A DNA stretch of 64,000 bases from Fidelibacterota bacterium (GTDB lineage: Bacteria; Fidelibacterota; UBA8477; JABMPR01), in contig JAJRSW010000002.1 of the NCBI GenBank assembly GCA_024278595.1, positions 11,945-75,944 on the forward strand, given 5' to 3'. Every line of letters starts with the position of its first letter. Position 1 is the first letter of the stretch. Under the pieces are notes generated by a model. The model was not told the DNA's origin. It searched no databases and was given only the letters and a program-made list of their open reading frames with translations. Positions 34,352 to 64,000 of this stretch are shown one piece after another. The position numbers and the translations under genes were made by a program.

Positions 34352-37300
34352 ATGAGAAACGCAAGATCGCTGCTTGTTGGCCTGGCTATTATTTCAAATA
34401 TAATGGCTGGAACAACAGGAAAAATTTCTGGAAAGATCACAGACAATTACACAGGTGAGGCCTTGATCGGGGTCAATATAATGGTTGAAGGTACAGGTCT
34501 GGGTGCCATTACTAATATTGATGGTTACTATGTGATCTTGAATATCCCACCTGGTTTCCACACGGTAAAAACCAGTATGATCGGCTATGCCCGTCATGAG
34601 ATCAAGGAAGTTCGCGTTGAGATAGATCGTACTGAGACCCTGAATATCATCATGTCCGAAGAGATCCTGGAGGGCCAATCAGTGGTCATCACTGCCGAGC
34701 GTAGGGTGATCAAGATGGATGTGGCTGCCAGTCAGCGCAGCATGGACGCCGAAAGCATCAAACAGCTCCCTGTCACCAGTATCAGTGAAGTATTGGGACT
34801 TCAGGCAGGCGTGAGTGGTTTCTCGGTTCGTGGTGGAGGAGCGGATGAAACATCTCTCATGATTGATGGCATTGAGCTCAAGGATCAGCGAACCAACCAA
34901 CCTATTACAGGTATCCCCTTAAGCGCTGTACAAGAAATTTCAGTTCAAACTGGTGGATTTAGTGCAGAGTATAACAATGTACGCTCTGGGGTTGTGAATG
35001 TGGTGACCAAGGATGGAAGCGGAGGTTACTCTGGAACCGTGACCATCAAACATAGTCAGGCTGAACCAAAACATTTTGGCATTTCACCCTACGACGCCGA
35101 TTCTCATTTTCTGAGACCCTATCTGGATGATGCCGTGGCCTGGACCGGCACCGAAAATGGTGAAACATATACGGATGTTGATGGCAATGGCTACTGGGAT
35201 GAGGGTGAACCTTATACTGATTTTAATGGTGACGGATCCTACACCGCCTGGGATAAATATGAACAACGTCAGTATCCTGTCTTTGCAGGCTGGAACGCCT
35301 TATCCGAGTCCAGTCTGGGCAATGATGATGCCGGAGATGATCTTTCACCAGCCTCAGCCCAGCGCCTTTTTGAATGGCAGTACCGGAAACCCGGCAATAT
35401 CATCAATCCGGATTATAATGTGGATGCCGGCTTTGGTGGACCGGTCCCCATAATCGGTTCCAGCCTGGGTGACCTGAGGTTCTTTATCTCCTATCGACAG
35501 GAACAAAACGAATATCTTTACCCCGTTTCCCGCTCTGGGACTCTATCTAAGACCACCTTGCTACGCGTGACCTCTGACATTTCTAACTCCATGAAGTTAA
35601 ACATGATAGCCATGGCCGGGGAACTGGAGGCAACTACCTCCTCCAGGGGCGGACTTACCGGGTACCTTTCAAATGTCTGGGATCTTGCATCCCAGGTGAA
35701 CCGGGCTGGTTTTACCATGCCCTGGCGGCTCTACTCAAACGAATATTGGGCACCAACCACAGTATCACATAGCACCATTTCCGCAAAATTCACCCACCTG
35801 CTTAGTTCTTCAAGCTACTACGAGGTTCTGGTGAAACACACACGAAAAAGTTATGATACCGGTCCAGGGCAAGATCGTAACACGGATCAGATCTATGAAA
35901 TATTTGATGGTTATTTTGTTGATGAGGCGCCAGTAGGTTTCTATGGTACACCCCTGACCAGTGTTGAGGGTAAACTGACCATGGGGGGTGCTGTAAGCAC
36001 ATCGCGGGATGAGAGCACGGTCAAAACAAGCTCGATCAGTGGTAATTATACCAACCAGATGAATCGCCAGAATCAGGTGCAAGCAGGTTTCAATTTTACT
36101 TTTGATGACCTGGATATGGAATTCGGATCGCTGAATTATTTCTTGCCTGAGGGCAATTATTGGACCCGAATGCATTATAATCCCTACCGATTAAGTGGAT
36201 ATATTCAAGATAAACTTGAGTTTGAAGGATTTATTGCTTCCCTGGGTATAAATGCAGAGTTTATTGATCCTAGTGCGGCCTGGTATGCTATAGATGTGTA
36301 TGATGAAAAATTCTTTTCCGGCAGCTACAGCCTGGAAAGCGATGATGATTTTGAAAAAGTTGACATTGATCCACAACTGTATATCAGTCCCAGACTTTCC
36401 ATTTCTCATCCCATCACTATCAATTCAAAGTTGTACTTCAACTATGGTCACTATCGGCAGATACCCACGGCTGAAAGCTTATTTCGGATCCAGCGTAAAG
36501 CTGTGTTGAACTCCGAACGTGACATCGAGGATCTAACTCAACTCTCTGTTATTGGCGATCCTACTCTGGAGCAGGCCCGGACGATATCCTATGAGCTTGG
36601 CTACGATCATGCCCTGTACGACACCTATCTATTGCATTTCGCGGCCTACTATAAGGATATCTCGGATCAGCAGGACTGGACCCGCTACATCAGTGCCAAT
36701 GGCAAAGTAAATTACAGCCAGTTAACTGCCAATAGCTATGAAGATATCAGAGGGTTCGAGGCTGATATCTCTAAATTGGTCGGTGATTGGATCACAGGTC
36801 ATGTGAATTATGAATACCGGGTGAATACATCTGGATTTTTTAATATTAAACGGTATTACCAGGATCCGAAAGAGCAAAGCGACTATCTAAAAAACAATGC
36901 AACTCAATTCAAACCCAGGCCGACTCCTAGAGTCAAATCAGTTGTGGATCTCCACACACCTGGAAATTATGGTCCAAAGGTATTTGGCCAGCATATTCTC
37001 AGTGATTGGCATCTCAACATTCTGAGTAGTTGGCGGGCAGGTAGCTGGTTCGAATACAACCCCAAAAACATTGAAGGAATTAGTTATAATTTTCGCTGGC
37101 AGGATGCCAAATCAGTGGATCTCAAATTTTCCAAGATGTTCAAGGCCGGAAAAATGAACATCAAGTTTTTTGCTGATGTAAACAATGCCTTAAACATCAA
37201 AACCTTCAGTACCTATGGTTTTGCTGATATCCATGATTATAACTTCTACATGGGCTCTTTACTGTTAGGCGAAGACAATCTGGAAGATCTGGGGCTGAAT

Positions 37301-37612
37301 GTGTTACCCGGCATCGATCATGCCGATAGTCCTGGTGATGTCCGACCCGCTGATATTGACTTTGTTCCTCTGGAATGGCGGGGTGATATCAGTGATGAAC
37401 TCGATCCGCAGGAAAGACCGATCTATTATGATGCAGCCACTGAGACCTACATGCAGTGGGATCACAACGCTGGCTGGGATGAGGTAGATCAGGCCTATTT
37501 GGATCAGGTGGTTAAGGACAAAGCGTACATTGATAATCCTAATCAAGGTTCGTTCGTCTTTCTGGCGCCCAGAGATATTTTCTTTGGGATCAATATCTCC
37601 TACAATTTTTAA
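34352..37612 (+). CDS. TonB-dependent receptor A with an N-terminal CarboxypepD_reg domain (1086 aa)
   Basis: Signal peptide. GKISGKITDNYTGEALIGVNIMVEG..DGYYVILNIPPG (CarboxypepD_reg). Plug (IKQLPVTSISEVLGLQAGV, IDGIE, FSAEYNNVRSGVVNVVTK). C-terminal aromatic residue ...NISYNF. Confidence 0.88.
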   Translation: MRNARSLLVGLAIISNIMAGTTGKISGKITDNYTGEALIGVNIMVEGTGLGAITNIDGYYVILNIPPGFHTVKTSMIGYARHEIKEVRVEIDRTETLNIIMSEEILEGQSVVITAERRVIKMDVAASQRSMDAESIKQLPVTSISEVLGLQAGVSGFSVRGGGADETSLMIDGIELKDQRTNQPITGIPLSAVQEISVQTGGFSAEYNNVRSGVVNVVTKDGSGGYSGTVTIKHSQAEPKHFGISPYDADSHFLRPYLDDAVAWTGTENGETYTDVDGNGYWDEGEPYTDFNGDGSYTAWDKYEQRQYPVFAGWNALSESSLGNDDAGDDLSPASAQRLFEWQYRKPGNIINPDYNVDAGFGGPVPIIGSSLGDLRFFISYRQEQNEYLYPVSRSGTLSKTTLLRVTSDISNSMKLNMIAMAGELEATTSSRGGLTGYLSNVWDLASQVNRAGFTMPWRLYSNEYWAPTTVSHSTISAKFTHLLSSSSYYEVLVKHTRKSYDTGPGQDRNTDQIYEIFDGYFVDEAPVGFYGTPLTSVEGKLTMGGAVSTSRDESTVKTSSISGNYTNQMNRQNQVQAGFNFTFDDLDMEFGSLNYFLPEGNYWTRMHYNPYRLSGYIQDKLEFEGFIASLGINAEFIDPSAAWYAIDVYDEKFFSGSYSLESDDDFEKVDIDPQLYISPRLSISHPITINSKLYFNYGHYRQIPTAESLFRIQRKAVLNSERDIEDLTQLSVIGDPTLEQARTISYELGYDHALYDTYLLHFAAYYKDISDQQDWTRYISANGKVNYSQLTANSYEDIRGFEADISKLVGDWITGHVNYEYRVNTSGFFNIKRYYQDPKEQSDYLKNNATQFKPRPTPRVKSVVDLHTPGNYGPKVFGQHILSDWHLNILSSWRAGSWFEYNPKNIEGISYNFRWQDAKSVDLKFSKMFKAGKMNIKFFADVNNALNIKTFSTYGFADIHDYNFYMGSLLLGEDNLEDLGLNVLPGIDHADSPGDVRPADIDFVPLEWRGDISDELDPQERPIYYDAATETYMQWDHNAGWDEVDQAYLDQVVKDKAYIDNPNQGSFVFLAPRDIFFGINISYNF

Positions 37613-37642
37613 TGACAAACGGATGCGATAGATAAGGAATTA

Positions 37643-39724
37643 ATGATGCGTTTAAAGAACAATATGATCATCCGATTGTTGGTACTCAATATACTTACCT
37701 TTGGATTGCTTTCGACCCAGGCGATTGGCGCCGAGAGTAAGTGGATTGCTGTTGGGAATCTGCATAACTGGTATTCAGAAGAAGGCTGCGAGATCGAAGT
37801 TGGCCGAACTGGACAAATAAGAGATCAGCAGGATGGTTTGCGGTGGCCGGCTCAATTTAGTTATCAAGATGTTCAGGCAGCTAAGGCGCTGTGGATCGGC
37901 AGTACAAATTTCACTGATCCAGTAGCGGGTAGAACTTATGATTACAAAGTGGTACATGTGGGTCCCAGAGGCCCCGTTGATATTAAAAAAGAGATCATGA
38001 TCGAAGCGTTCAAAATGTATGGTAAGTACGATCATCCCACGGTTTTTGTGGATGGCTTACCGGCCAGTACACTTCAATTCATGGATTTCGTGGATAGTGT
38101 TGATGCTGATATGGCAGCGGATCGACGCATTCTCAACCAAGTGAACACCGCCATGGGGATTACGCTTACTCGGAATATTCGCGGTTATTCAAATCAGAAT
38201 CATGATAATTATCATATCTATGATTATGTATTCGAGAATACCGGGAAGTATGACACTGATGGGAATACTATTAATGTGACGCTTACTGATGTGTACTTCA
38301 TGTTTCAGTATCGCTATGCTGCCAGTCGTGAGGGGGGACCCTATGGAAGTGGGGGCTACTGGTTGCCTCAGAATACCGCCTGGGGCCGCAACACGGTGAA
38401 TGAAGTAATTGGAGAAAACCCGGCGGACGGTGAGATACGGGCACAGTACTCCTGGCATGGCAAGCATTCTCAATCCGCAGATGGCCATGATAACTATGGT
38501 GCTCCCTATTACGGCGATGGCGGTGATGGACACTTAAGCGCACAACAATTTATGGGTGTTGTGACCTTGCATGCCGATACATCACCCACTGATCCCAGCG
38601 ATGACCTGCGTCAACCTTCAACAACCTATTACATTGGCTCAGATGCCCAGATAACCTATGATAATGATCAGTACAACCCGGCCAAGATGCAGGCTCGCTA
38701 TGCCCACATGACGCTGGGGCACCCCCTGGAATCCCATGCTGAATCAGTTGGGGATGGATTTGCCGATACCTGGGGCAATGACCCGGGTGGCTATTCCCAG
38801 GCTCAAGCTTTTGGTCCCTACACGCTGGCTCCTGGCGAAAGTGTCAATATTGTTTTGGCGGAAGCCGTTGCCGGTATCAATCGGGCCCTGTGTTATGAAG
38901 TGGGTGGCAATTGGTTTGATTCCACCATTCCGGTGGGTGAACTACTGAATCCGGATGGTTCAACACCGGTTGATAAAGACGAATACAAGGATAAATGGGT
39001 ATTTACAGGCGAGGATTCATTGCTGCAAACCTTCCAACGGGCCATTGATACCTATGAAGCTGATTATTTCGTTCCAGTGCCACCACCACCACCTGATGAG
39101 TTTGTCGTGACTTCGGGTGGTGATCAGATAAAACTCACCTGGTCCAATTCAGCTGAGTCACATCCCGGATTCATGGGCTACAAAGTGTATCGGTCCATGC
39201 ATAAACCGGATACCACCTATGAGGAAATATTCAACTGTGATGTTACAGCCCTTAGTAATGAATTTGCCGATGTGCAAGCAAAACGCGGATTTGATTATTT
39301 CTACTATATCGTCAGCTATGATGATGGTAATACTAACCTGGTTGCCCCGGGAGCACCCCTGTACAGCAGTAAATTTTATACCATGACCAGCAAAGGGGCC
39401 AGCTTAAAGCGTCCGCCAGGGGAGACTTTAGCTGATATTAGGATCGTACCTAATCCGTTTAACATCAAATCGCGGGATTTGCAGTTTAGTGAAAGCGGAC
39501 CGGATCGCTTGTATTTTTACGATATTCCTCCCATCTGTACCATCCGGATCTACACTGAGCGCGGTGACCTGGTTCATACAATTGAGCATACTAATAACAG
39601 TGGTGATGAGGCCTGGGATCTTATCACAGAATACCGACAGGTTATTGTAAGCGGCATTTATCTGGCGCATTTTGAAGTGCCAGATGGCCGATCAACCTAT
39701 CGCAAATTTATTGTCATTCGATAA
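37643..39724 (+). CDS. Uncharacterised secreted partner protein A (693 aa) with a PPPPP linker, an FN3-like module and a T9SS-CTD-like C-terminus
   Basis: Signal peptide. PPPPPDEFVVTSGGDQIKLTWSNS..GYKVYRS (FN3-like). C-terminus IRIVPNPFNIKS..CTIRIYTERGDLVHTI..GDEAWDL..VSGIYLAHFE..YRKFIVIR. Paralog of 44724-46847. Confidence 0.75.
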   Translation: MMRLKNNMIIRLLVLNILTFGLLSTQAIGAESKWIAVGNLHNWYSEEGCEIEVGRTGQIRDQQDGLRWPAQFSYQDVQAAKALWIGSTNFTDPVAGRTYDYKVVHVGPRGPVDIKKEIMIEAFKMYGKYDHPTVFVDGLPASTLQFMDFVDSVDADMAADRRILNQVNTAMGITLTRNIRGYSNQNHDNYHIYDYVFENTGKYDTDGNTINVTLTDVYFMFQYRYAASREGGPYGSGGYWLPQNTAWGRNTVNEVIGENPADGEIRAQYSWHGKHSQSADGHDNYGAPYYGDGGDGHLSAQQFMGVVTLHADTSPTDPSDDLRQPSTTYYIGSDAQITYDNDQYNPAKMQARYAHMTLGHPLESHAESVGDGFADTWGNDPGGYSQAQAFGPYTLAPGESVNIVLAEAVAGINRALCYEVGGNWFDSTIPVGELLNPDGSTPVDKDEYKDKWVFTGEDSLLQTFQRAIDTYEADYFVPVPPPPPDEFVVTSGGDQIKLTWSNSAESHPGFMGYKVYRSMHKPDTTYEEIFNCDVTALSNEFADVQAKRGFDYFYYIVSYDDGNTNLVAPGAPLYSSKFYTMTSKGASLKRPPGETLADIRIVPNPFNIKSRDLQFSESGPDRLYFYDIPPICTIRIYTERGDLVHTIEHTNNSGDEAWDLITEYRQVIVSGIYLAHFEVPDGRSTYRKFIVIR

Positions 39725-39736
39725 GGGGCTAGAGAT

Positions 39737-40753
39737 ATGTTTAAATACACGATAAATATTCAGGGTCCTCTGCTGTGGATGATGGTCCTATTACCGCTCA
39801 TATTTACCATTAGCTGTGAAAGGTATAATGAAGAAACCTATGAGCTGAACGAACTCGAGCAAGTGATCTGTGATCGGTTTAGTGATACCTTGAGCCATGA
39901 GCTGAAAGCGGCCGATCTTCGCCTCTTTGGTCCCAGCTGGACCGGCAAAGAAGTTGAGCAAACCTTGCTGAATATGGAACGCATCGGGAGTACCTGGTTC
40001 AATGCCGATTTTGAGCTGGAACCTGATGTGTTTGTCTTTTTGGAAGGTGCTGATACGGTAGCAGCTATGCAAATCCTGGATTTCGTGTATGACGATGCCC
40101 TGGTAAGCATGGATAGCATCTACATCGCCTACCTGTATAACCCTGCCGGCACACCGGCATTTGGCGGATTGGTAGCCGATACAATTCTGGTCCTTGATCC
40201 TGGCACAACACCCCTTTATCTGGACTTTAGCCAAGGTGTGGTTGGCGCCAGTGATGACTGGAATATCAGCCTGGATGGTGTCAATATCAAACAAGCCAGC
40301 TTAAGCAAGGTCTTTCGTCTTGAGAATCGATTACTGGCTGCATTTACCACAGCTCCAAAAGAATACTATGCTGCAGATATCCTGGGTTTTGAGTTGGCTG
40401 TTAATTATCTGGAAGCTGACACGATCTATCTCACTGAAACCGATTCACTACTCAGCGTAGGAATAGAATCAAGCACTGATGCCGGGTATATGCTCTGGAA
40501 TCGCCAGGGAATGGGAAGCTCAGAGATCATTTTTAATACCACAGACTATATGACCATCGCCATCTGGGATGAGAGTGGTATCTATCTGGACCCCTCTGAT
40601 GTAACCATGTCCATGCAGACGGTTGCCTATTGCTGGGCTCTAAAGACAAAAGTAGCCTATGAACTTGATGAGTCGACCTATTTAGTTCAATTCCTGCCCC
40701 ATGAAGAAATGGCAACCGCAGAGTTTGACCTGGTTATTGTGGAGGGTGAGTAA
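39737..40753 (+). CDS. Hypothetical lipoprotein (338 aa)
   Basis: Lipobox-like LIFTISC. No recognisable catalytic motif. The DWNISLDGVNIK segment is faintly reminiscent of HmuY-like proteins (weak). Confidence 0.55.
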   Translation: MFKYTINIQGPLLWMMVLLPLIFTISCERYNEETYELNELEQVICDRFSDTLSHELKAADLRLFGPSWTGKEVEQTLLNMERIGSTWFNADFELEPDVFVFLEGADTVAAMQILDFVYDDALVSMDSIYIAYLYNPAGTPAFGGLVADTILVLDPGTTPLYLDFSQGVVGASDDWNISLDGVNIKQASLSKVFRLENRLLAAFTTAPKEYYAADILGFELAVNYLEADTIYLTETDSLLSVGIESSTDAGYMLWNRQGMGSSEIIFNTTDYMTIAIWDESGIYLDPSDVTMSMQTVAYCWALKTKVAYELDESTYLVQFLPHEEMATAEFDLVIVEGE

Positions 40754-40754
40754 G

Positions 40755-41762
40755 ATGAAAATTACAAACGTAAGCATGAAAAACAGCATATTACTGATTT
40801 TGACGCTGAGTTGTTTGGTGAGTATTGGTTCAGCACAGGTCAAACTGGCTCAGTCCGGGGGACAATTCTTAAGTGTTGACTCGGATGCCAAGGCAGGGGG
40901 TATGGCGGGTGCTTTGACCACCATAGAAATGAACTCCGCTTCGGTATTTTATAATCCGGCCGGAATGTCACGCCTGAGTGGCACAGTGGATGTGACAGCA
41001 AGTCAGAATCAATGGTTCGCAGATATTGCCTATAACTCATTTTCGGTGGCCATTAAACCCGCTGATGGTGAATGGGGCGTATTTGCAGCGTCTTTTGTTT
41101 CGGTTGATTATGGGGAGATCCAAGGAACCCAGCGCTGGGACAATGATCAGGGCTATATCGATACAGAGATTCTGACGCCTTCCGCCTATGCTGCCGGTTT
41201 TGGATACGCGAAAGCTTTAAGCGATAAATTTTCAGTAGGTGGTCATCTGAAATATATCGGTTTGAATTATGGGAAAAGTATCTACCCGGATGAAGCAGGT
41301 TTTGCTGATACAGTGAAAGCACACATAAGCTATGCAAACGCTTTTGATTTTGGAACGATCTATCGTACGGGTTGGAAGAGTTTGGCCTTTGGGATGTCAG
41401 TACGCAATTTTTCAAATGAAGTTACCTTTGAATCAGAAGGTTTCCAGTTGCCGCTGACCTTTGCCCTGGGCATTTCCATGGATCTCATGGATCTGAAACG
41501 TGAACAAATGGGTGACCAGCACCTGATGCTGAGCGTGGATGCCCTACACTATCGCTCCCATGCAGAACAAGTTCGAATTGGTCTCGAGTATAAACCAATC
41601 GCTATGCTTTCACTCAGGGCTGGCTATCGGTCAGCTAATGATGAGAATGATATCTCTTTTGGCCTGGGTATCCAGCAATTCGGTCTGGTATTTGATTATG
41701 CCTATGAACCATTTGGCCGCCTGGGAGATGTTCAGCGAATGACAGTCAGATTTTCTTTCTAA
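40755..41762 (+). CDS. PorV/PorQ-family outer-membrane beta-barrel protein
   Basis: Signal peptide, then GGQFLSVDSDAKAGGMAGALTTIEMNSASVFYNPAGMS, which resembles the PorV/PorQ N-terminal signature. Alternating beta-strand pattern. C-terminal ...MTVRFSF. ATG at 40755 is preceded by GGAGGGTGAG. Confidence 0.7.
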   Translation: MKITNVSMKNSILLILTLSCLVSIGSAQVKLAQSGGQFLSVDSDAKAGGMAGALTTIEMNSASVFYNPAGMSRLSGTVDVTASQNQWFADIAYNSFSVAIKPADGEWGVFAASFVSVDYGEIQGTQRWDNDQGYIDTEILTPSAYAAGFGYAKALSDKFSVGGHLKYIGLNYGKSIYPDEAGFADTVKAHISYANAFDFGTIYRTGWKSLAFGMSVRNFSNEVTFESEGFQLPLTFALGISMDLMDLKREQMGDQHLMLSVDALHYRSHAEQVRIGLEYKPIAMLSLRAGYRSANDENDISFGLGIQQFGLVFDYAYEPFGRLGDVQRMTVRFSF

Positions 41763-41781
41763 GCGGAATATTACCTGATAT

Positions 41782-46847: not shown

Positions 46848-46882
46848 GCCGGTGTATCATAAAAAATACAGGACAAAAGAAA

Positions 46883-48121: not shown

Positions 48122-48236
48122 AGTTAGTAAAATTAATTAACTAATTATTATTATTCCAGTGTGCGGCGTAACATTTATTTTGTATAATGCAACGCTATTA
48201 GACACATATAGAAACACAACAGAAGGAGACTAAGAC

Positions 48237-49588: not shown

Positions 49589-49625
49589 AAAAAAGGCGAG
49601 GGAAACCTCGCCTTTTTTTATTTTA
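49589..49625 (+). terminator. Rho-independent terminator ending the 34352-49568 gene string
   Basis: AAAAAA-GGCGAGG-GAAA-CCTCGCC-TTTTTTT. Confidence 0.88.
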
Positions 49626-49766: not shown

Positions 49767-49944
49767 CTCGACAAACGAAAAATATGAAGAGGATACCGCA
49801 CATTATGAAGTGAAACTGTTATAACATGCAATATGGGGTTCATTTTTTTATTACGGATATTTTTTAGTTGGTACACCAAAGTTACTTACTTGATTGCGCT
49901 TCCTGTTTATCTTCCAACCTGAAATATATATTAAGGAGAGCATT

Positions 49945-52900: not shown

Positions 52901-53060
52901 TCTGCGTGGACGCCAGGTCCAGGAATTAATTACTGGCCAGCAGAATGCTGGCACCCACAAACTGCCTTTCAAGGCTGCCGATCTGGCGGCTGGTGTCTAT
53001 CTGATTCGTCTGGAGACTGAAATGGGTAGTCAGGTCAAAAGGATGCTGCTACTGAAATAA
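49945..53060 (+). pseudogene. GHL10-family (YngK-like glycoside-hydrolase-like) protein with Ig-like modules and a canonical T9SS CTD, interrupted by a single -1 frame break near 50749-50753
   Basis: Frame 1 reads ...ETLHDSIQSQ and then loses protein-like sequence. Frame 0 reads KPWVRLSVAALGKYNWSGWNGYN... from 50751, continuing the same domain. The break is at an A4 run (AGCCAAAACC). The C-terminus is LNQNYPNPFNPETTLSFELP...MLLLK. Confidence 0.75.
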
Positions 53061-53099: not shown

Positions 53100-53115
53100 A
53101 AATGGTCATGATCAT

Positions 53116-54957: not shown

Positions 54958-54980
54958 CATATCTAAATGGCTCTATTGGA

Positions 54981-57824
54981 TTATTTAATAAGAGTCATCT
55001 TGGCTGTTTTGGAAACGTTTCCAACACGGAGCTCGTAGACATAGACACCGGCTGCTGCAGGTGTTCCATTAGCCTTTAAACTGTTCCAGGTAATACTGTG
55101 ACTACCAGGACCGTAGGAAGCATCATTGGCCAAACGAACAACTTCTTGTCCAAGCATATTGTATACGATCACATTAACATTGTCTTTCGCCAATGGCAGT
55201 GTGAATTCGATAGTAGTGCTGGGGTTGAAGGGGTTCGGATAGTTCTGGGCCAGTTTATAATCATCGGGAGTGATGATGGTCCAGTCCTGATCGATTCCAA
55301 CGACACCAAACTCAGATACTGAGAATGTATAACCATAGTCGTTACCGGAAGAGAGTGGTGGTTCAAGGAAGCCCTGAATAACTTCAGGTCCACCGTCACC
55401 ATCAAGGTCTTCAGCGTAGGCCAGAGCGAAACCACCCATGACTGCATCCCAGTTAGCTACGACGGACATATCCCAATCGCTGCCATTGTAATCCCACTGG
55501 TAAACACGAGCGTGAGTGTAATCAACAGTGAATAGCTCAGCTTCAGGATCAGCATCGACGTTGCCACCAACCAGATCCCATGGAGCACCGAAATCACTGA
55601 TCATGGTTACGCTGCCATTGGCCCAACTGATATCGGCTACATCATCGCCGCCTTTAACCTGCATGATCCAACCTGATGAGTACAGACCACAATAGAACTC
55701 GTCAGCTCCATCAGCATCAATATCGGTAACAAAGGTCGTCCCATAAATGGCTTTATCAGTGAAGGCAGAATCCAGTTGGATGATGGACTGAAGTTCATAT
55801 TCGTCAACACCCAGAGCTTCTACCACCAGCAGAGTTGCATGATCCCAGGCGACGAAAAGTGCTTCCATATCGCCATCTCCGTCAAGATCACCCAGATTGG
55901 GCTGACCCCAGGGTGACCCACCAAAATCGGCAGTGACCGTTCGGACATTGGAATACTCGACGTTAAAGTCAAAGAAACCGCCAGAGAATGTGCCCTGGAT
56001 GGATCCAATGACAAACACATCGGAACTATTGTCTGATCCATTAACAGCTATGAGCAATTCATCCTGACCATCACCATCAACATCACCGGTATTCATTGTA
56101 CGGTCACCATAATAGCGATCGACTTCGACACCGTCGATAAGAATCGGGAAGACGTAACGGGTGTAATTATCGCTACCGTCAACACCGTCCCATTCCCATA
56201 CATTAACACCGTTGTAGGCTTCACCGGCAGTGCGCATACCCAGATAGATAATCTCACCACGGCCATTATTGTCAAGGTCGCCAGTGATTACGTGGCGGGG
56301 AGTTGCCCAATAGCTGGTGGAATCATCAACCATGGTAGCAACCCATTCCAGGGTATTGTCACCGGTTGCTTCGTAAACATGCACACCGTGGATTTGATAA
56401 TCAGTAATGATGATTTCATAGAGACCGTCATTATCAAGATCACTTCCAGCGGCAATCCCACGAGTTTGGAAACCAGGGGAGAGCAGTGTGTCAGCCATAC
56501 TTGCATATGAACTGGTTACACCGGCCACATCCCAACCATCATGCTCATAGACCTGAACAGTGGCAGTGGATCTGGTTACAGCAAAGATCTCATCCAGACC
56601 ATCATAATCGAAATCACCCAGTACAACATCCTGCCACTCATCGGTGGATGTCTCATTAGGGATCATATAGGGAGTCCATGAGGCTGCATCAGTGACAGCA
56701 CCAACACCATCATACTCCAGGTCGATCATGACTGTGGAATCAGTAGTGATGATAAAATCAGCACCATCTGCAGAGCCATGCCAGATGTCCGTATTACCCA
56801 ATTGAGCTCCACGGAAAGAAAATTCTTCCAGTCCAACATAGATCTCATAGACATCGGTGGTGCCGTCAAAATCGGCCAGGTCTGCACCGATGTCGTACAC
56901 TACAACGTTACCTTCCGTAGAGGCGAGGTAGATCTCTGTATAACCATCACCGTTAAGGTCAGCGGAAGCGATACCACGTTTAGAACCGCCATCATAGGTA
57001 GTTACACCTTCGACAAATTGAATTAATTCATATTCATTGACACCCACGACATCAAAAAATGAAATCTCATCGAAATTCCACTGTACCATGGCAAAATTGT
57101 TGGTACCATTGGCATCAAAATCGCCAATGACAGCTCCACCATAGACTGAACAGCAAAAGCTTTCATCTGAAAATTCCAAAACCCAGTTTGGAAATTCATA
57201 GGTCGAGTTGGTATCCAACGACATGACGATGACGGCAGTTGCCCGACCATCATAGATCAACAGCTCTGTGACGCCATCCGCATCCAGGTCATTAGCTACA
57301 ATAGTTTTAACCGAAGTAGCATAGACACCATCACCATTGGCAATGTCGGCAACTTCAGCTGGGTTGACAGCAGCAACCTGGGTAAAGGCGATCTCAGTGG
57401 CACTGGTATCCAACTCAAAAATGAAGAGTGAGTTTGGATAGTCACCGCCTGAGCCGGCTTCACCAGTAACCAGCATTTCTGGAATACCGTCACGATCCAG
57501 ATCAGTCATCTCATTGGCAACTTCGTAACTGTACACGATATCTGAAATGGTATGGGTCCAGACTTCCGTCCAGGCATCGTTGCCGTCATTCTCAAACATG
57601 TGCAGAGTGATGCCTCCATCGTCTGTAAAAGCGACGATCTCATCAAATCCATCGGCATCGTAATCAAAGGGTCCGGAAACCCCCCAGTAAACGTCGCCAT
57701 CGGTGGCACTGGTCTCAGACCAGCCGAGTGTGTAGCTATTCACACCATTTCCACCAGCCATGGCAAAAACTGCAAATGCAAATAACAACAGGGTAATTGA
57801 CCATTTTGGTAAATTCATTCCCAT
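54981..57824 (-). CDS. FG-GAP/VCBS-repeat protein with a canonical T9SS C-terminal domain (947 aa)
   Basis: Many calcium-loop repeats (DYDADGFDEI, DLDRDGIPEM, DLDADGVTELL, GDFDYDGLDEI, GDLDNNGRGEI, GDVDGDGQDELL, GDLDGDGDMEAL). C-terminus LAQNYPNPFNPSTTIEFTLP...KMTLIK. Confidence 0.85.
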   Translation of the reverse strand: MGMNLPKWSITLLLFAFAVFAMAGGNGVNSYTLGWSETSATDGDVYWGVSGPFDYDADGFDEIVAFTDDGGITLHMFENDGNDAWTEVWTHTISDIVYSYEVANEMTDLDRDGIPEMLVTGEAGSGGDYPNSLFIFELDTSATEIAFTQVAAVNPAEVADIANGDGVYATSVKTIVANDLDADGVTELLIYDGRATAVIVMSLDTNSTYEFPNWVLEFSDESFCCSVYGGAVIGDFDANGTNNFAMVQWNFDEISFFDVVGVNEYELIQFVEGVTTYDGGSKRGIASADLNGDGYTEIYLASTEGNVVVYDIGADLADFDGTTDVYEIYVGLEEFSFRGAQLGNTDIWHGSADGADFIITTDSTVMIDLEYDGVGAVTDAASWTPYMIPNETSTDEWQDVVLGDFDYDGLDEIFAVTRSTATVQVYEHDGWDVAGVTSSYASMADTLLSPGFQTRGIAAGSDLDNDGLYEIIITDYQIHGVHVYEATGDNTLEWVATMVDDSTSYWATPRHVITGDLDNNGRGEIIYLGMRTAGEAYNGVNVWEWDGVDGSDNYTRYVFPILIDGVEVDRYYGDRTMNTGDVDGDGQDELLIAVNGSDNSSDVFVIGSIQGTFSGGFFDFNVEYSNVRTVTADFGGSPWGQPNLGDLDGDGDMEALFVAWDHATLLVVEALGVDEYELQSIIQLDSAFTDKAIYGTTFVTDIDADGADEFYCGLYSSGWIMQVKGGDDVADISWANGSVTMISDFGAPWDLVGGNVDADPEAELFTVDYTHARVYQWDYNGSDWDMSVVANWDAVMGGFALAYAEDLDGDGGPEVIQGFLEPPLSSGNDYGYTFSVSEFGVVGIDQDWTIITPDDYKLAQNYPNPFNPSTTIEFTLPLAKDNVNVIVYNMLGQEVVRLANDASYGPGSHSITWNSLKANGTPAAAGVYVYELRVGNVSKTAKMTLIK

Positions 57825-58015: not shown

Positions 58016-58023
58016 CAGGGAGG

Positions 58024-58052: not shown

Positions 58053-58102
58053 AATCGAATAGTTTTCTTTTCTTTAGTAATGGATAAAACCAGGGAGAGT
58101 GT

Positions 58103-61100
58103 ATGAATTCAGTGTTAGTGAATCCTTACAGATCAATTCTGAAAGTATTATTATTCAGCCTAATATTAAGTAGTGTTTATGCTGGTACCACGGGGAAGAT
58201 CTCTGGAAAAGTAAGCGATGCAGAGACTGGCATGGGCCTGCCTGGCGTCAATGTTATCATCGAAAACAGTAGCTTGGGTGCTTCCACTGATGCTGACGGA
58301 ATCTATTTTATTATTAACATACCAGTCGGTACCTATTCAGTTAGAACCGGGATGATTGGCTATACCACAATGATCATGACCGATGTAGCCGTACGGGGGG
58401 ATCTTACCACCGAGATCGATTTCGCCATGAGCGTTAAAGTGCTGGAATCCGACCAGGAAGTGATCGTGGTTGCTGAAAGACCCATGGTCCAGAAGGACCT
58501 GACCTCGGGTCGCGCAATTATCAGTGCTGAAGAAATGAAGGCAATGCCGGTTGAATCCCTGGCCGGTGTAATTTCCACCAAGGCTGGAATTGTTTCCGAC
58601 CCCAATGGAGCGATCCATATTCGAGGTGGGCGTTCAAGTGAGGTAACCTACATGATCGATGGAGTACCGGTTACCAATCTTTCTTCTGGAGGCCTGGGAG
58701 TTGGTCTCGAAACCAACGCAGTGCAGGAGTTACAGATCCTCAGTGGTACTTTTAATGCGGAATACGGCCAGGCCATGTCTGGTATTATCAATATTGTGAC
58801 CAAGGAAGGTGGCTCAAAATATACCGGGAGTCTCAGTGCTTACCTGGGAGACTACTACACCGAGAACACCCGCTTCTTTGAATACGCCAATGAATTTGAT
58901 CTGATGAACATCAAAAATATGGATGCCAGTCTTTCCGGACCCGTGCCTGGATTTGGCCGAAATCTGACCTTTTTTGCCAGTGGTCGTCTCTATGATTATG
59001 GTGGTCTGTATCGCGGCGTTCGTGAACATATCCCAAATGATGTTAACTATATGACCTCCAAAGCCGTGGAAGAACTGCGCGACTCACCCTGGGGTCGGGC
59101 CGGTCTGCTGAACTTTGCTGAACCCTTCGAAGACCTGGATGGTGATGGACTGTTGGCACCTGGTAGTGAATCCTATATCGATTTTGATGGCAACGGATCA
59201 TATACTGCCGGAGAACCTTTTCGGGATGTCAATGGCAATAATCGCTACGAACACATGCAGGATCTTAATGGCAATGGCTACCTGGATAATGAAGATCTTG
59301 AATTTATCGATCTGAATGGAGATGGTGTTTTAAACGGAGATCCCTTTTATGATACCAACTTCAATGGGGTGCTGGATGGAGAGCCCTATATAGATTTTAA
59401 TAATAATAATGAGTGGGATAGTGGTGCCGGTGGTGATGGGAACGTGGTGCGCCTGAATACATCGAAGCGCTATAACGGCATGCTGAAATTGACCTGGAAG
59501 ATCACCCCGAAAATGAAGCTCAATACCAGTATCATTCACAATGCAGCAGAATCAGTGAGCTACCGCCTAGCCTACAAATACAATCCTGATGGACGTCCCA
59601 CCAATCAATCCACCTCCACATCTGTGATCATGGATTTCAGACACTCCCTGAACGAACGCATGTTTTATAACATTAAGGGATCCTTCTATCAGACCACTGC
59701 TAAAACCTTCTATCTTGATAAAGACCCGGATGAGTTGAGTGAGACCATCAATTTACAGTACAACGGTAGCAGCCAACTGGCCCAACTTTCTCAGAACTTG
59801 AAAGCCGCTGCAGCTGATGATCAAAGTGGTTACGGAATGGGCAGCTATTACGGGGATGTGAGTGACTCACTTTTGATCCTGAACAGTCGGATCTCGCTCT
59901 CACTCATCGATACCATCGAATTTTCCGGATATAAATTTGCCACCGAAGATCTGTTCGGGACGAGTGAACCCTCATTTGAGATCACCAATACCTGGGAAGA
60001 ATCTGCTGCGCTGGCTTGGGCAAGTTATATTGATAGTGGCTGGGTCGTATCAGCTGGACTGGACATCGTGGTCAGTGACCTGACCGGTGGCTATTTTCTA
60101 CCGAACTCGGTCTCCGAGGTACCTGATAACGAATATTATGGTGGTGGTCATACCCACAGCTACTCCCAACGGATCAACCAAACCTACCTCATGAGTGGCG
60201 CCTTGACCTGGCAAATGAACAATACCCATCAGTTCAAAGCCGGTGCTGGCTTTAAAACCCATATTATGGATTACAAAGCCTATACCGTATTTGTGCAGCA
60301 AAGTCAGGATTGGATACCATCCATAAAAAGCACCTCCAGCGCCGCTAATGATTCTTATGATAACTGGTTAACTGAAGCAGTCTCAAAATTATCACTTTCC
60401 ACCAGAAACCCAAGAGAGGCCTACCTGTATGTACAGGATAAGATCGAATTGACCGATATGATCGTCAATATGGGTTTCCGATATGATTATTTTGACCCGA
60501 ATTATTTTGTTCCCTCTGACTACCGTGATCCCGAAAATCCAAAATACTGGTTGTATACCCTGCTTAATCCAGACTCCACAGCTGTGGATACCTTTTTCCA
60601 ATTCAAAGGGGAGGTCTCTATATTTGATGAGATCCTGGATACACTGGATGCGAACGGCGAACCATGGAAGGACCATAACGATTTCTACCTGAATACCGAA
60701 GTCGTACACCAATTCTCACCCCGTTTTGGAGTGGCCTATCCCATTACAGATAAGGGAATTATTCACTTCAGTTACGGGCACTTCTTTCAGATCCCAACTT
60801 TCAGCTACCTCTATGCTAATCCGGAGATGGAGATTAGTACCGAGAGTAATGAATCCATACTGGGAAATGCTAATTTGAAACCCCAGAAGACCGTGACGTA
60901 TGAGATCGGTCTCCAACAGGAGTTGACTTCAGACCTGGGAATTGAGGTGATCGCCTTTTATAAGGATTTTTCAGGCCTCTTGAGCTCGGATCAGATCGAG
61001 AAGTACAACACCATTAACTATGTCGTCTATTCCAATCGAGACTATGGCGATAGCCGGGGAATTACCGTAGCAGTGACCAAACGGCGGACCGGACTCATAT

Positions 61101-61648
61101 CAGCTTCGGCTGATTACACCTATCTGGTGGCCCAGGGCAATGCGTCGAATCCGCTGGCACTTTTCTATGCCAATCAGAGCGACCCCCCTACAGAAGTGGT
61201 AAAACAGGTTATTCCCCTGGATTGGGATCAGACCCACACGGTGAATGTTAATCTCAGTCTGGCAGAACCGCGCAAATGGGGCGTCTCTATCCTTACCAAA
61301 TACAGTTCAGGCTTTCCCTATACACCCACCTATCAGGGTAGTTCTCTGGATAGCCCCAACTCTGACCGGAAACCAGATTATTTCAATGTTGATATAAATA
61401 TGCACAAGGATGTGATCTTCGCCGGTCTGCATTGGACCGTTTTTGCCAAGATCTATAATGCGCTTAATACCCAAAATGAACGCAGCGTATTTTCAGATAC
61501 TGGTCGTGCTACTTACTCCCTGATCCCAATCTATACACCGGATAACGGCCATATCGCTGGCAGACACTCGCTAAGTGATTATTTGACTCGTCCCAGTTAC
61601 TTCAGTAGTCCCCGACAGTTCCGTCTCGGAATCTCAACCAGCTTCTAG
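58103..61648 (+). CDS. TonB-dependent receptor C with an N-terminal CarboxypepD_reg domain and an acidic calcium-loop repeat insertion (1181 aa)
   Basis: GKISGKVSDAETGMGLPGVNVIIEN..DGIYFIINIPVG. Plug (MKAMPVESLAGVISTKAGI, IRGGRSSEVTYMIDGV, FNAEYGQAMSGIINIVTKEG). C-terminal ...LGISTSF. Confidence 0.88.
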   Translation: MNSVLVNPYRSILKVLLFSLILSSVYAGTTGKISGKVSDAETGMGLPGVNVIIENSSLGASTDADGIYFIINIPVGTYSVRTGMIGYTTMIMTDVAVRGDLTTEIDFAMSVKVLESDQEVIVVAERPMVQKDLTSGRAIISAEEMKAMPVESLAGVISTKAGIVSDPNGAIHIRGGRSSEVTYMIDGVPVTNLSSGGLGVGLETNAVQELQILSGTFNAEYGQAMSGIINIVTKEGGSKYTGSLSAYLGDYYTENTRFFEYANEFDLMNIKNMDASLSGPVPGFGRNLTFFASGRLYDYGGLYRGVREHIPNDVNYMTSKAVEELRDSPWGRAGLLNFAEPFEDLDGDGLLAPGSESYIDFDGNGSYTAGEPFRDVNGNNRYEHMQDLNGNGYLDNEDLEFIDLNGDGVLNGDPFYDTNFNGVLDGEPYIDFNNNNEWDSGAGGDGNVVRLNTSKRYNGMLKLTWKITPKMKLNTSIIHNAAESVSYRLAYKYNPDGRPTNQSTSTSVIMDFRHSLNERMFYNIKGSFYQTTAKTFYLDKDPDELSETINLQYNGSSQLAQLSQNLKAAAADDQSGYGMGSYYGDVSDSLLILNSRISLSLIDTIEFSGYKFATEDLFGTSEPSFEITNTWEESAALAWASYIDSGWVVSAGLDIVVSDLTGGYFLPNSVSEVPDNEYYGGGHTHSYSQRINQTYLMSGALTWQMNNTHQFKAGAGFKTHIMDYKAYTVFVQQSQDWIPSIKSTSSAANDSYDNWLTEAVSKLSLSTRNPREAYLYVQDKIELTDMIVNMGFRYDYFDPNYFVPSDYRDPENPKYWLYTLLNPDSTAVDTFFQFKGEVSIFDEILDTLDANGEPWKDHNDFYLNTEVVHQFSPRFGVAYPITDKGIIHFSYGHFFQIPTFSYLYANPEMEISTESNESILGNANLKPQKTVTYEIGLQQELTSDLGIEVIAFYKDFSGLLSSDQIEKYNTINYVVYSNRDYGDSRGITVAVTKRRTGLISASADYTYLVAQGNASNPLALFYANQSDPPTEVVKQVIPLDWDQTHTVNVNLSLAEPRKWGVSILTKYSSGFPYTPTYQGSSLDSPNSDRKPDYFNVDINMHKDVIFAGLHWTVFAKIYNALNTQNERSVFSDTGRATYSLIPIYTPDNGHIAGRHSLSDYLTRPSYFSSPRQFRLGISTSF

Positions 61649-61660
61649 GAAGGTGCAAGC

Positions 61661-64000
61661 ATGAAAAAGAATCTCATAATACTCGTGGCTTTCATCATCT
61701 CCCTGGGAGTGTTGAATGCGGATCAAAATAATAAACCTAAAATGCCTGAGCATAAATATGACCGTGTGGGCTGGCTGAAATACTATAATGCCCTGGAACG
61801 TCAGAATTTATTGTCCAAAGCATCCGCTTTAAGTGATCGACGTCGGGGGATGCATAATGGGAATCGGGTCCGGACCCTGTTCTACAATTACGGATCCATT
61901 GGTAAACCGGGAACTGAACCCTCAATGGAATGGCCAATTGGATCATCCCGGGGTTATGCCTATGAATTTGGTGTCATCGCCGGTGCCAAGATAACCACTT
62001 ATGGTGGCGAACTGGATGTCATCGTCAGTGACGGTTTGGTTCAGTCTGGGGTGACCTATGATGATGGTGGATTTGATGATAACAATCCCGGTGAGTGGCA
62101 ACCCCTCACAGGCTACCACGATCCCTTTCAGGAGTCCATCGCAATGAGTGATGCCGGCGATCTGGATCGCGATGGTAAACCTGATTCGTGGCCTGGAAAC
62201 TGGTATGATCCTGCTTTTGGTGATTATGTATGGCCTGGTGAATACGGTCAGGGTATTACCACGGCCGATCAGGAATCCTATTTTGTCATGGATGATTATT
62301 ATATCAAAAGCCACAACACCTTCTGGCCTGAACAGGGCTGGTCAGACTCGCTTCGTGATGATGAATTTTATCCGGCTCTGGGGATTGATACGGTTAGAGG
62401 CGGGTTGGGACTGGAAGTTGAGTCCCGGGGATATCAATGGATTGCTACCCGAGCCCAGAATGTGATCTTCTTTGTTTATGAATTAAAGAACGTCGGTACT
62501 GATACCCTCAGCAATATGTATTTCGGTAGGTACGGAGATCCCCACATCGGTGGCGGCAGTGATTACAATGATGATGACGCCTACTTTGATACCTTCATTG
62601 ATATCGTTTATGGCTGGGATGATGATGCCATTGGTGACGTCGTTTTTGGTACAACCGTGCCGGGCTTCTTTGGCTATAAGTTTTTGGAATCACCCGGTGA
62701 ACCCCGGGATGGCATCGATAATGACGAAGATGGTATGATCGATGAATCCATGCAGGATGGTATTGATAATGATGGCGACTGGCGGCCCTATTCCGATTGG
62801 AACCTCAATGGGGAATGGGATACCGGGGAACCCCTTAATGATGATCTGGGTACTGACGGTGTGGGACCGGAAGATCCCCAATATGTGGCACCGGATGCCG
62901 ATGGCTCACAGGCCAATGGATTTCCTGACGCAGGGGAACCCAATTTCGATGAGAAAGATCTGGATGAGGCAGACCAGATCGGTTTAACCGGATTTGTGGT
63001 TGAACCCTGGAGTTCAGCAACCAGAACAGAGGACTTTTATTATTCTAGTCGCTTGACTGCCGGAATTGATACAACAGATTTTCAGCAGAATACTGATAAC
63101 ATCTTTATGTACAGCTCTGGTCCCATCAAAATGGCACCCAATGATGTGAGACGTTTTTCAATTGCCATGCTTTTTGGCTATAATGTCAATCAAGCCAGTG
63201 GTGAAGACCTCTACATGGATCCACATAATGTCCGCGACCTTTATGCTACAGCAGCCATTATGCAGGAGATCTATGATGCCGGTTACCGGTTTGTCAAACC
63301 CCCCAGCAAACCGCGTTTAACGGCTGTCCCCGGTGATGGACAGGTAACTTTATATTGGGATGAAGGGGCTGAGAAGTCACGCGACCCGTTATATGGGAAC
63401 GATTTTGAAGGATACGCTATTTATCGATCGACTGATTTTGGATTTAATGAGTCCCTCACGATCACCGATACCTATGGCAGTCCCTATTTATGGAAGCCCA
63501 TCGCCAAATTCGATCTGGATAATTACATCGCGGGACCGCATCCAATTGAGCAGATCAAGGGTTCGGGCCTCCATTACGATATGGGCAACAACTCCGGTTT
63601 GGTGCACAGCTATGTGGATAAGAACCTGATCAATGGGCAACGCTATTTTTATGCGATCTGTGCTTATGATTCAGGTTCTGTAACGGATACCATTCCACCC
63701 ACAGAGACTGCCAAGACCATTCAGGAAGACTTTGCCGGTAATGTGACCCTGGACGTAAACACTGCTTCGGTAACGCCTCAAGCACCGTCCATCGGTTACA
63801 TCGCTCCCCGGATAACCAATATTACGGCTGATGCAGACCTGCCTGGTACCGGCGAGATCGAATTTAAGATCATCGATCCGACCAAGATCCCCGATGACCG
63901 GATATTAGCAGTCCGATTCATAGATTCAGGCATGGATGAGGTGGATAACGATCTGGACTGGGAGACCTATCTGGATCAGGACTTGATCCGCTTTAATGGA
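61661..64000 (+). CDS. Uncharacterised secreted partner protein C, 3'-truncated by the window edge (at least 780 aa). Distant paralog of partners A and B. This ORF is not listed in the supplied ORF track.
   Basis: I translated frame 2 codon by codon from the ATG at 61661 to 64000 and found no stop. Signal peptide MKKNLIILVAFIISLGVLNA. FN3-like PRLTAVPGDGQVTLYWDEG..FEGYAIYRS. RBS AGGAAGG upstream. Confidence 0.8.
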   Translation, partial: MKKNLIILVAFIISLGVLNADQNNKPKMPEHKYDRVGWLKYYNALERQNLLSKASALSDRRRGMHNGNRVRTLFYNYGSIGKPGTEPSMEWPIGSSRGYAYEFGVIAGAKITTYGGELDVIVSDGLVQSGVTYDDGGFDDNNPGEWQPLTGYHDPFQESIAMSDAGDLDRDGKPDSWPGNWYDPAFGDYVWPGEYGQGITTADQESYFVMDDYYIKSHNTFWPEQGWSDSLRDDEFYPALGIDTVRGGLGLEVESRGYQWIATRAQNVIFFVYELKNVGTDTLSNMYFGRYGDPHIGGGSDYNDDDAYFDTFIDIVYGWDDDAIGDVVFGTTVPGFFGYKFLESPGEPRDGIDNDEDGMIDESMQDGIDNDGDWRPYSDWNLNGEWDTGEPLNDDLGTDGVGPEDPQYVAPDADGSQANGFPDAGEPNFDEKDLDEADQIGLTGFVVEPWSSATRTEDFYYSSRLTAGIDTTDFQQNTDNIFMYSSGPIKMAPNDVRRFSIAMLFGYNVNQASGEDLYMDPHNVRDLYATAAIMQEIYDAGYRFVKPPSKPRLTAVPGDGQVTLYWDEGAEKSRDPLYGNDFEGYAIYRSTDFGFNESLTITDTYGSPYLWKPIAKFDLDNYIAGPHPIEQIKGSGLHYDMGNNSGLVHSYVDKNLINGQRYFYAICAYDSGSVTDTIPPTETAKTIQEDFAGNVTLDVNTASVTPQAPSIGYIAPRITNITADADLPGTGEIEFKIIDPTKIPDDRILAVRFIDSGMDEVDNDLDWETYLDQDLIRFNG

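Follow-up and report, generated by a model that had tools for sequence, protein, structure and literature searches.

The window considered here is a stretch of 64,000 nucleotides (nt) from a Fidelibacterota bacterium (assembly GCA_024278595.1, contig JAJRSW010000002.1). In its second half, three genes for large TonB-dependent receptors (A, B and C) are each followed directly by the gene for a large partner protein with a signal peptide (Table 1); such a pair, with the genes that recur beside it, is referred to below as a module. An earlier note on this DNA, made from the letters alone, had placed each partner 0–30 nt behind a receptor with a CarboxypepD_reg extension, a plug and a barrel, and the junctions read as claimed: receptor A ends in TAA, 30 nt before the ATG of partner A, receptor B and partner B overlap by 1 nt (TAATG) and the TAG of receptor C is followed after 12 nt by an ATG. 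Pairs A and B lie in a same-strand gene string (34352–49568) with gaps of at most 115 nt, which also holds, as the note had described, two lipoproteins, a barrel of the PorV/PorQ family and a propeller with a Por_Secre_tail match, and which is closed by the one hairpin that it had read as a terminator.

Open reading frames (ORFs) for the three receptors are present where the note had placed them, and all three products match the Pfam models CarbopepD_reg_2 and Plug (for receptor A with expectation values (E) of 4.6e-19 and 6e-10). The mature N-termini share the same TTGKISGK extension, and a conserved GEEVVVVAERP motif resembling a TonB box lies between extension and plug, as judged by eye in the receptor alignment. 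The barrel comprises approximately 850 residues. The Pfam TonB barrel is matched directly by receptor C only, and barrel models are matched directly by 2–4 of 30 homologs of the A/B-type receptors; the barrel region of receptor A aligns to that of receptor C (23% identity, E 1e-20, compared with 38% identity over extension and plug), in agreement with the proposed barrel. Receptors A and B are 39% identical. Against the SusC/RagA model TIGR04056 (cutoff 368 bits), receptor A reaches 71 bits, with its N-terminus only, and receptor B 37 bits, and receptor C is not listed. A sequence search of the PDB gave no match for receptor A alone, and the receptor profile matched extension and plug only. 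By these sequence criteria the proteins are TonB-dependent receptors with a SusC-like layout that stand outside the SusC/RagA family as NCBI defines it.

Table 1. Genes and other features of the locus (positions in the window; aa, amino acids; T9SS, type IX secretion system; FN3, fibronectin type III domain)
Feature	Position	Strand	Remarks
TonB-dependent receptor A (1086 aa)	34352–37612	+	Signal peptide, CarboxypepD_reg extension, TonB-box-like motif, plug, large divergent barrel
Partner A (693 aa)	37643–39724	+	Sec signal peptide without Cys, predicted beta-supersandwich of ~450 aa, FN3, divergent T9SS type-A C-terminal domain
Lipoprotein (338 aa) between partner A and PorV-like gene	39737–40753	+	Lipobox LIFTISC
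PorV/PorQ-family outer-membrane barrel	40755–41762	+	NF033709 match; longest ORF from 40701
TonB-dependent receptor B (980 aa), paralog of A	41782–44724	+	Pfam CarbopepD_reg_2 and Plug
Partner B (707 aa), paralog of partner A	44724–46847	+	Start overlaps receptor B stop (TAATG)
IPT/TIG-domain lipoprotein (412 aa)	46883–48121	+	Pfam TIG, E 4.5e-6; lipobox FTGC, then EEDP
Beta-propeller-like protein with standard T9SS type-A sorting domain	48237–49568	+	Por_Secre_tail 37.4 bits (cutoff 27); weak SGL matches
Intrinsic-terminator-like hairpin, end of A/B gene string	49589–49618	+	13-bp stem with 6 GC pairs, then T run
GHL10 glycosidase-like enzyme with Big_5 and T9SS sorting domain, frameshifted	49894–53060	+	GHL10, E 2e-26; Big_5 and Por_Secre_tail matches
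FG-GAP repeat protein with T9SS sorting domain	54981–57824	-	FG-GAP_3, E 8e-26; TIGR04183 34.9 bits (cutoff 23)
TonB-dependent receptor C (1181 aa)	58103–61648	+	CarbopepD_reg_2, Plug, TonB_dep_Rec_b-barrel (E 1.4e-24), OMP_b-brl_4
Partner C, second partner family	61661–64000	+	Window ends after residue 779; no family match

Partner proteins and their sorting domain

Partners A and B share 37% identity across the whole protein, rising to 67% in the C-terminal sorting domain and falling to 31% in the N-terminal domain (N-domain). Partner A has no match in Pfam or NCBIfam, and the family matches no curated family; against the PDB, the partner sequences gave no match except a weak Fn3-like profile match of the A/B type (E 0.051). 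Public records label members of the A/B-type family as "fibronectin" or hypothetical. More than 1000 relatives were retrieved in a word-indexed search, and an exhaustive search at E<=1e-30 yielded 530 clusters at 50% identity. The AlphaFold2 model of partner A, built on an alignment of 64 sequences, has a predicted local distance difference test score (pLDDT) of 88.6 and a predicted template modelling score (pTM) of 0.85, and places a signal helix, a beta-rich domain of ~450 residues, an FN3 domain and a seven-strand C-terminal sandwich (residues 600–691) in this order. Modelled alone, the N-domain reaches a pLDDT of 90.8 and a pTM of 0.92. Some family members are longer: variants of 1200–1600 aa add a long extra C-terminal region to N-domain and FN3, and others carry an N-terminal extension of ~430–630 residues.

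The gene order resembles that of a polysaccharide utilisation locus (PUL), and the earlier note had failed to recognise a SusD gene in it. Profile searches bear this out: no locus protein has a SusD-like match in Pfam or NCBIfam, and the SusD_RagB and SusD-like Pfam models match none of 64 A/B-type members at E up to 1 and none of 30 C-type members at E up to 0.1. The tetratricopeptide repeat (TPR) fold is absent from the models of partner A, which are predominantly beta, and the signal peptides of partners A, B and C contain no Cys and so no lipobox. Judged from sequence and predicted fold, the partner is neither SusD-like nor a lipoprotein, and the description of its family as uncharacterised agrees with the want of any curated match and with an all-beta prediction instead of TPR. 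An ordinary SusC/SusD locus whose SusD has diverged too far to be recognised would account for the succession of receptor, partner, surface lipoproteins and secreted glycosidase that mimics a PUL, and for the SusC-like extension of the receptors. However, the lax scans of 64 and 30 members, the confident all-beta model and the missing lipobox speak against it, as do receptor scores of 71 and 37 bits vs a cutoff of 368. In addition, canonical SusCDE is reported in the genome paper of Melioribacter, and the module occurs in metagenome-assembled genomes (MAGs) of the Melioribacteraceae. This explanation is extremely improbable, and for the 94 members scanned both sequence and predicted fold refute a divergent SusD. 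SusCDE and the module probably coexist in the Melioribacteraceae; since Melioribacter has SusCDE, the module is probably not a simple replacement in SusD-less lineages.

Foldseek comparison of the N-domain with the PDB points to the supersandwich N-domains of glycoside hydrolase family 94 (GH94) phosphorylases, GH116 enzymes and dextran dextrinase, and to the P1 domain of YidC. The E values extend to 1e-6, with template modelling (TM) scores of only 0.3–0.38 and root-mean-square deviations of 8–12 A, and Pfam PF06165 is not matched. The modelled likeness is therefore one of a carbohydrate-associated fold class and not of family membership. The C-terminal half of partner A matches many FN3 tandems (probability 1.0) as well as PorZ.

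Of the alignment columns in the N-domain, 41 are invariant, and many of these hold charged or aromatic residues (E50, D76, K81, R161, R177, R224, E230, D312, E407, R414). The domain is 50–60% identical between phyla, which is unusually high for a pure binding protein. Furthermore, supersandwich folds can be catalytic, as in galactose mutarotase and in the PL4 lyase, in which supersandwich, FN3 and beta-sandwich follow one another in that order. These properties would suit a partner acting mainly as a surface enzyme (a lyase, hydrolase or epimerase on a beta-supersandwich) that processes polymer ahead of the receptor, instead of a SusD-like lid. However, no enzyme family is matched by sequence, and the Foldseek matches are to the non-catalytic N-domains of GH94 and GH116, which leaves a mainly enzymatic partner rather unlikely. 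It would also be compatible with the uptake model set out below, from which it differs in the role of the partner but not in location or coupling.

Partner C is truncated by the end of the window; its closest full-length relatives are 1351–1358 aa long, 52–54% identical and end in the same C-terminal domain. More than 4700 relatives were found, and relatives are 1000–1360 aa long. No Pfam or NCBIfam family is matched, and the C-type profile has no match in the PDB. BLAST of partner C against partners A and B shows only marginal local similarity. In a profile comparison, C-type and A/B-type proteins share FN3 (probability 97.1%, E 7e-11) and a C-terminal domain of ~100 residues (probability 99.2%, E 6.7e-20), whereas their N-terminal domains are unrelated (probability 2%). 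The single partner family of the earlier note thus holds for A and B but does not extend to C beyond FN3 and the C-terminal domain; for the N-domains, one family for all three is rejected.

Receptors A and C and partner C contain runs of D-x-D-G-N-G and G-I-D-N-D-x-D-G, which resemble thrombospondin type 3 or calcium-binding motifs. They are located at residues ~264–300 of receptor A (~35140–35250), ~337–440 of receptor C (~59110–59420) and ~339–440 of partner C (~62675–62980), and could form calcium-dependent loops on both sides of a putative receptor–partner interface.

The C-terminal domain largely escapes the curated sorting-domain models. TIGR04183 (cutoff 23) gives 17.7 bits for partner B (residues 620–705) and no match for partner A; PF18962/TIGR04183 matches are weak and confined to 1 of 64 A/B-type and 1 of 30 C-type members, and the type-B model CHU_C (PF13585) is weakly matched by 12 of 64 A/B-type members (best E 0.0013). 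A profile of 124 partner C-termini was compared by hhalign with one of 59 bona fide Por_Secre_tail domains from propeller and Big_5 proteins of the same loci. The two align with a probability of 96.6% (E 5.4e-10) over 76 columns, reaching the last residue, and the partner FN3, used as a control against the same Por_Secre_tail profile, gives 0.1%. PNP, GxY and terminal K-x-x-K/R motifs are preserved in the partner domain, with an insertion of ~10–17 residues after PNP. Given this homology to bona fide type-A sorting domains, the partner very probably is, as the earlier note had supposed from its appearance, cargo of the T9SS, and its sorting domain a specialised derivative of type A.

At least four proteins of the window have sorting-domain matches, three of which pass the curated cutoff; with several such proteins encoded, the organism evidently uses a T9SS. 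Outside the locus, a 1042-aa LVIVD-repeat protein (7268–10396, +) ends in a FlgD_ig/Por_Secre_tail-like C-terminus that scores 23.2 bits, below the cutoff of 27, and is a probable further T9SS cargo. Two arguments about the sorting domain were abandoned. Its retention at the surface had been argued from its being the most conserved part of the partner, but ordinary propeller cargo shows the same trend (51% vs 37%). A literal reading as a type-B sorting domain with a PorP/SprF barrel was likewise rejected, as CHU_C is matched weakly and the barrel of the locus belongs to the PorV/PorQ family; type B serves as an analogy only.

Conserved neighbours and genomic context

For a survey of gene neighbourhoods, ORFs were called in 80 species-representative genomes and matched to the window proteins. 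A receptor ORF lies directly upstream of 108 of the 112 partner genes that have room upstream, with a median gap of 15 nt. The synteny of receptor and partner is almost invariant across phyla, which substantiates the coupling of partner homologs to CarboxypepD_reg receptors. The closest A/B-type relatives are labelled Marinimicrobia, Neomarinimicrobiota or Fidelibacterota; other carriers belong to KSB1, Calditrichota, Melioribacteraceae/Ignavibacteriales, Delongbacteria and WOR-3. Receptor A and partner A are usually followed by the small lipoprotein, the PorV-like barrel and the TIG lipoprotein, in some cases by receptor B and partner B, then by the propeller with sorting domain and finally by GHL10-Big_5 with sorting domain; this arrangement is also found in a complete Calditrichota genome and in a Melioribacteraceae contig of 4.5 Mb. 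In three loci of Melioribacteraceae and relatives (L016, L018, L023), receptor B, partner B and a PorV-like gene precede receptor A, partner A and a second PorV-like gene, which gives each partner its own; elsewhere, one mostly serves both.

The PorV-like protein scores 174.9 bits against the family model NF033709 (PorV_fam, cutoff 90), with residues 52–353 covering the whole model. It stays below the equivalog cutoffs of both PorV (NF033710, 65.9 bits vs 250) and PorQ (NF033711, 67.1 bits vs 220), and has no PorP/SprF-family match in the Pfam and NCBIfam scans. By its scores, it is a distinct paralog that forms a separate subfamily. The longest ORF overlaps the upstream lipoprotein gene by 53 nt; translation more likely begins at an internal ATG at 40755, one base past the stop codon of that gene, behind which a typical signal peptide is encoded. 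The earlier note had listed this gene as one accessory among others; with a PorV-like gene at most 1.2 kb downstream of A-type partners in 71 of 75 cases, it is instead a near-constant third member after receptor and partner. Among the C-type loci examined, the order receptor, partner, PorV-like gene recurs at five (L005, L087, L048, L055, L077), some of them with tandem copies; L006 has a C-type receptor and partner without a PorV-like gene. The PorV-like genes of C-type modules are only ~26% identical to the A-type one, and that of pair C would lie beyond the window end.

Relatives of the 338-aa lipoprotein occupy the same position in 12 fetched loci and are 30–57% identical within Marinimicrobia. 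In approximately 25 loci from many phyla, a short lipoprotein of ~200 aa stands there (for example L036, 12091–12696, and L056, 7977–8555). Neither form has a family match. The N-terminus follows the pattern C-E-x-Y..E-Y..(D/E)...C, and the small lipoprotein appears to be a constant part of the module, the fourth besides receptor, partner and PorV-like barrel.

Further along the string, the TIG lipoprotein gene is found in most related loci and the propeller with its sorting domain is conserved in them. Behind the terminator-like hairpin, a GHL10 ORF (49894–51198) and an ORF with Big_5 and sorting domain (50772–53060) overlap in different frames. In relatives, GHL10, Big_5 and sorting domain form one protein of 1034–1067 aa, and the alignment of the 1067-aa relative changes from frame 3 (up to ~50787) to frame 2 (from ~50751 on); the two ORFs are therefore taken as one gene with a frameshift near 50750–50790, caused by either an assembly error or pseudogenisation. 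Of the sorting domains that the earlier note had ascribed to both the GHL10 and the FG-GAP protein, that of the latter is present (Table 1), and the GHL10 ORF by itself lacks one, being split from it by the frameshift. The FG-GAP protein is a neighbour whose membership of the proposed import system is uncertain. A sigma-70 promoter scan returned no more sites than shuffled sequences did and thus carries no information. Upstream of the three receptors no riboswitch or other RNA regulation was detected, and the Rfam matches in the window are two tRNA genes only (10993–11077 and 11190–11264, -).

Several relatives place the module in a catabolic setting. At a locus of the Melioribacteraceae (L003, 2743–6548), the receptor A ortholog is directly preceded by genes for a sensor kinase (1056 aa; Reg_prop/Y_Y_Y and HisKA_3 domains) and a GerE-type response regulator, an arrangement that resembles the hybrid sensors of Bacteroides PULs. 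Six of 80 loci (L046, L051, L072, L078, L082, L083) have a same-strand GH20 hexosaminidase gene upstream of the receptor. All six belong to a Calditrichia-type subclade, and several also have a sodium:solute symporter and one or more ROK genes before GH20. The fullest pathway context found for the module is an eleven-gene same-strand string in the Calditrichia MAG HK-STAS-CALD-1 (L082, 642–17523), which runs from a NagC-like ROK regulator, a ROK kinase, a sodium:solute symporter and GH20 to receptor and partner, and on to lipoprotein, PorV-like barrel, TIG lipoprotein and a GH94 phosphorylase, with gaps of 5–24 nt from the regulator through the receptor. This string is a complete route from the outside to the cytoplasm. 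A GH94 gene beside the module was found in this locus only and is thus not general.

Contexts of this type hint weakly at beta-glycans containing N-acetylhexosamine. GHL10 enzymes recur beside both A/B-type and C-type modules, and the characterised ones found are the peptidoglycan lytic transglycosylase Cwp19 (PMC6016235) and the starch-active enzyme DogH (PMC9967864). The substrate of the A/B module is probably a glycan, and possibly one with N-acetylhexosamine derived from chitin or peptidoglycan. Within the window, an amino-sugar and cell-wall cluster (13973–19839) lies 15–20 kb upstream of the locus, with housekeeping genes in between. It encodes a GH3 protein (NagZ-like, below cutoff) fused to a PBP4B/AmpH-like beta-lactamase-fold domain (13973–16987, -), an alternative GlmU (17149–18366, -; TIGR03991 344 bits vs 225) and a NagC-like ROK regulator (18589–19839), and may relate to the hexosamine hint.

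A putative uptake module and its relation to known systems

The reading favoured here, with moderate confidence, is that these loci are PUL-like modules for nutrient import, in which the T9SS exports the partner and the PorV paralog holds its retained sorting domain at the receptor. The partner would cross the inner membrane by the Sec pathway and the outer membrane by the T9SS, and its sorting domain would stay uncleaved, held by the PorV paralog of its own module. Tethered in this way, the partner would sit beside the receptor in the role that SusD plays for SusC. The variable N-domain would capture or process substrate for TonB-driven import, with FN3 as a spacer, and the TIG and small lipoproteins, together with the propeller and GHL10 cargo, would bind and cut the polymer outside the cell. 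Uncleaved sorting domains held by cognate PorV-like barrels are described for PorZ with PorQ, PorU with PorV and type-B cargo with PorP/SprF, and cargo and cognate barrel are mostly encoded by neighbouring genes (Paillat et al. 2023, PMC10202324). The import reading itself is favoured because genes for a Y_Y_Y sensor, a symporter, a sugar kinase, GH20 and GH94 join the module in relatives. We infer T9SS export, retention by the PorV-like barrel, a receptor–partner complex, import and the substrate from computed domains, homologies, fold predictions and synteny.

Several points weigh against this proposal. The contacts between receptor and partner and between partner and PorV-like barrel are putative. 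The sorting domain of the partners lies below curated thresholds, so that T9SS dependence rests on profile homology, and its strong conservation is not special to the partners, as propeller cargo behaves alike. PorV-family and FadL-like barrels can serve other roles, for example as BamG in the barrel assembly (BAM) complex of Bacteroidota. The N-domain has only a weak, generic fold match. For hexosamine, the hint is confined to the GH20-bearing loci, 6 of 80, whose receptors are only 40–43% identical to receptor A. Lastly, no periplasmic or cytoplasmic catabolic genes adjoin the module within the window.

The module in the window is surrounded by housekeeping genes (polA, ftsY) in place of catabolic ones, and its conservation is very high, as in a core envelope component. 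Together with the OMP_b-brl_4 match of receptor C, these observations would fit a system without nutrient import, in which the receptor barrel exports, assembles or anchors the partner, in the way that PopC secretion in Myxococcus requires Oar, or in which a surface coat or a layer of adhesins is built by the module. Oar-type transporters also possess a CarboxypepD_reg extension (Gomez-Santos 2019, PMC6434023). However, the partner has export signals of its own, a Sec signal peptide and a T9SS sorting domain, so that export by the receptor is unneeded; the operon fusions with symporter, sugar kinase, GH20, GH94 and Y_Y_Y sensor point to uptake, and several paralogous modules per genome fit a diversification of substrates. 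Export or coat building is accordingly judged improbable. Oar of Myxococcus resembles the module receptors in extension, plug and very large barrel, and is likewise a TonB-dependent transporter tied to a secreted protein (PopC). It differs in that the transport proposed for the module is directed inward. Oar is not known to have a dedicated partner or PorV-like gene beside it.

Compared with SusC/SusD (RagA/RagB), the proposed import module shares a large receptor with a CarboxypepD_reg-type extension and plug, a partner gene immediately downstream that often overlaps or is only a few nt away, surface lipoproteins with a secreted glycosidase, a Y_Y_Y sensor in some lineages and several paralogous pairs per genome. 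In contrast to SusD, its partner is a predicted all-beta protein with a Sec signal, FN3 and a T9SS sorting domain and not a TPR lipoprotein; the receptors fail the SusC/RagA model, and the module has two further constant members, a PorV-family barrel and a small lipoprotein. The modules are also found mainly outside the class Bacteroidia, in Marinimicrobia, KSB1, Calditrichota, Ignavibacteria and Delongbacteria.

The T9SS pairs PorQ–PorZ, PorV–PorU and PorP/SprF with type-B cargo such as SprB have in common with the module that a protein with a T9SS C-terminal domain is encoded beside a PorV-like barrel, and in the known pairs the sorting domain is retained as a surface anchor (PMC10202324). 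In the module, however, a TonB-dependent receptor is joined to the pair, the barrel is a member of the PorV/PorQ family but neither equivalog, the sorting domain is a type-A derivative, and the cargo is neither a secretion component nor a gliding adhesin.

Loci of the NagC/NagR type for N-acetylglucosamine and chitooligosaccharides, with TonB-dependent receptors, occur in Proteobacteria such as Shewanella and Xanthomonas. The eleven-gene Calditrichia string resembles them in its NagC-like ROK, kinase, symporter, GH20 and GH94 genes, and up to five further loci have GH20 and some of these genes. Unlike the proteobacterial receptors, which act alone, the module receptor has a T9SS-tailed partner and a PorV-like barrel.

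The earlier note had considered the system to be undescribed. No account of the module was found in the searchable full-text literature or in the genome papers of Melioribacter, Caldithrix and SAR406, with subscription-only papers outside coverage. New elements in an uptake system of receptor and surface partner would be the two partner families, neither of which has a name, and the employment of a PorV paralog; a prior description is possible.

A wider proposal is put forward tentatively. Triads of receptor, T9SS-tailed partner and PorV paralog may represent a general, phylum-spanning alternative to SusCD in the FCB (Fibrobacterota–Chlorobiota–Bacteroidota) superphylum, in which a copy of a T9SS shuttle has been co-opted as a permanent socket that holds a non-lipoprotein lid or capture protein over the transporter by its uncleaved sorting domain. 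N-domains would be swapped on a constant stalk of FN3 and sorting domain, in at least two families with thousands of members, and the A/B module may be an outer-membrane route for N-acetylhexosamine oligomers derived from chitin or peptidoglycan.

The dominance of Bacteroidota in glycan turnover is explained by TonB-dependent receptors with surface partners, and this picture rests on SusD lipoproteins. The carriers of the module, Marinimicrobia (SAR406), KSB1, Calditrichota and Ignavibacteria, abound in oceans, sediments and reactors and are almost uncultured, and the many TonB receptors and T9SS-tailed proteins of these lineages have been noted only as lists (Thrash 2017). If the proposal is true, thousands of proteins now called "hypothetical" or "fibronectin" could be annotated as parts of a functional unit, and a capture protein would be fixed to a transporter in a new way, by T9SS export and a PorV-paralog socket in place of lipidation. 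PorV-family barrels would gain a new role apart from secretion. The module would furthermore be a concrete candidate for the outer-membrane step in the scavenging of amino-sugar glycans or muropeptides. The sole cultured member of this phylum lives on muropeptides (PMC11652737). As a route for N-acetylhexosamine oligomers, the A/B module would bear on how Marinimicrobia acquire exogenous cell-wall fragments.

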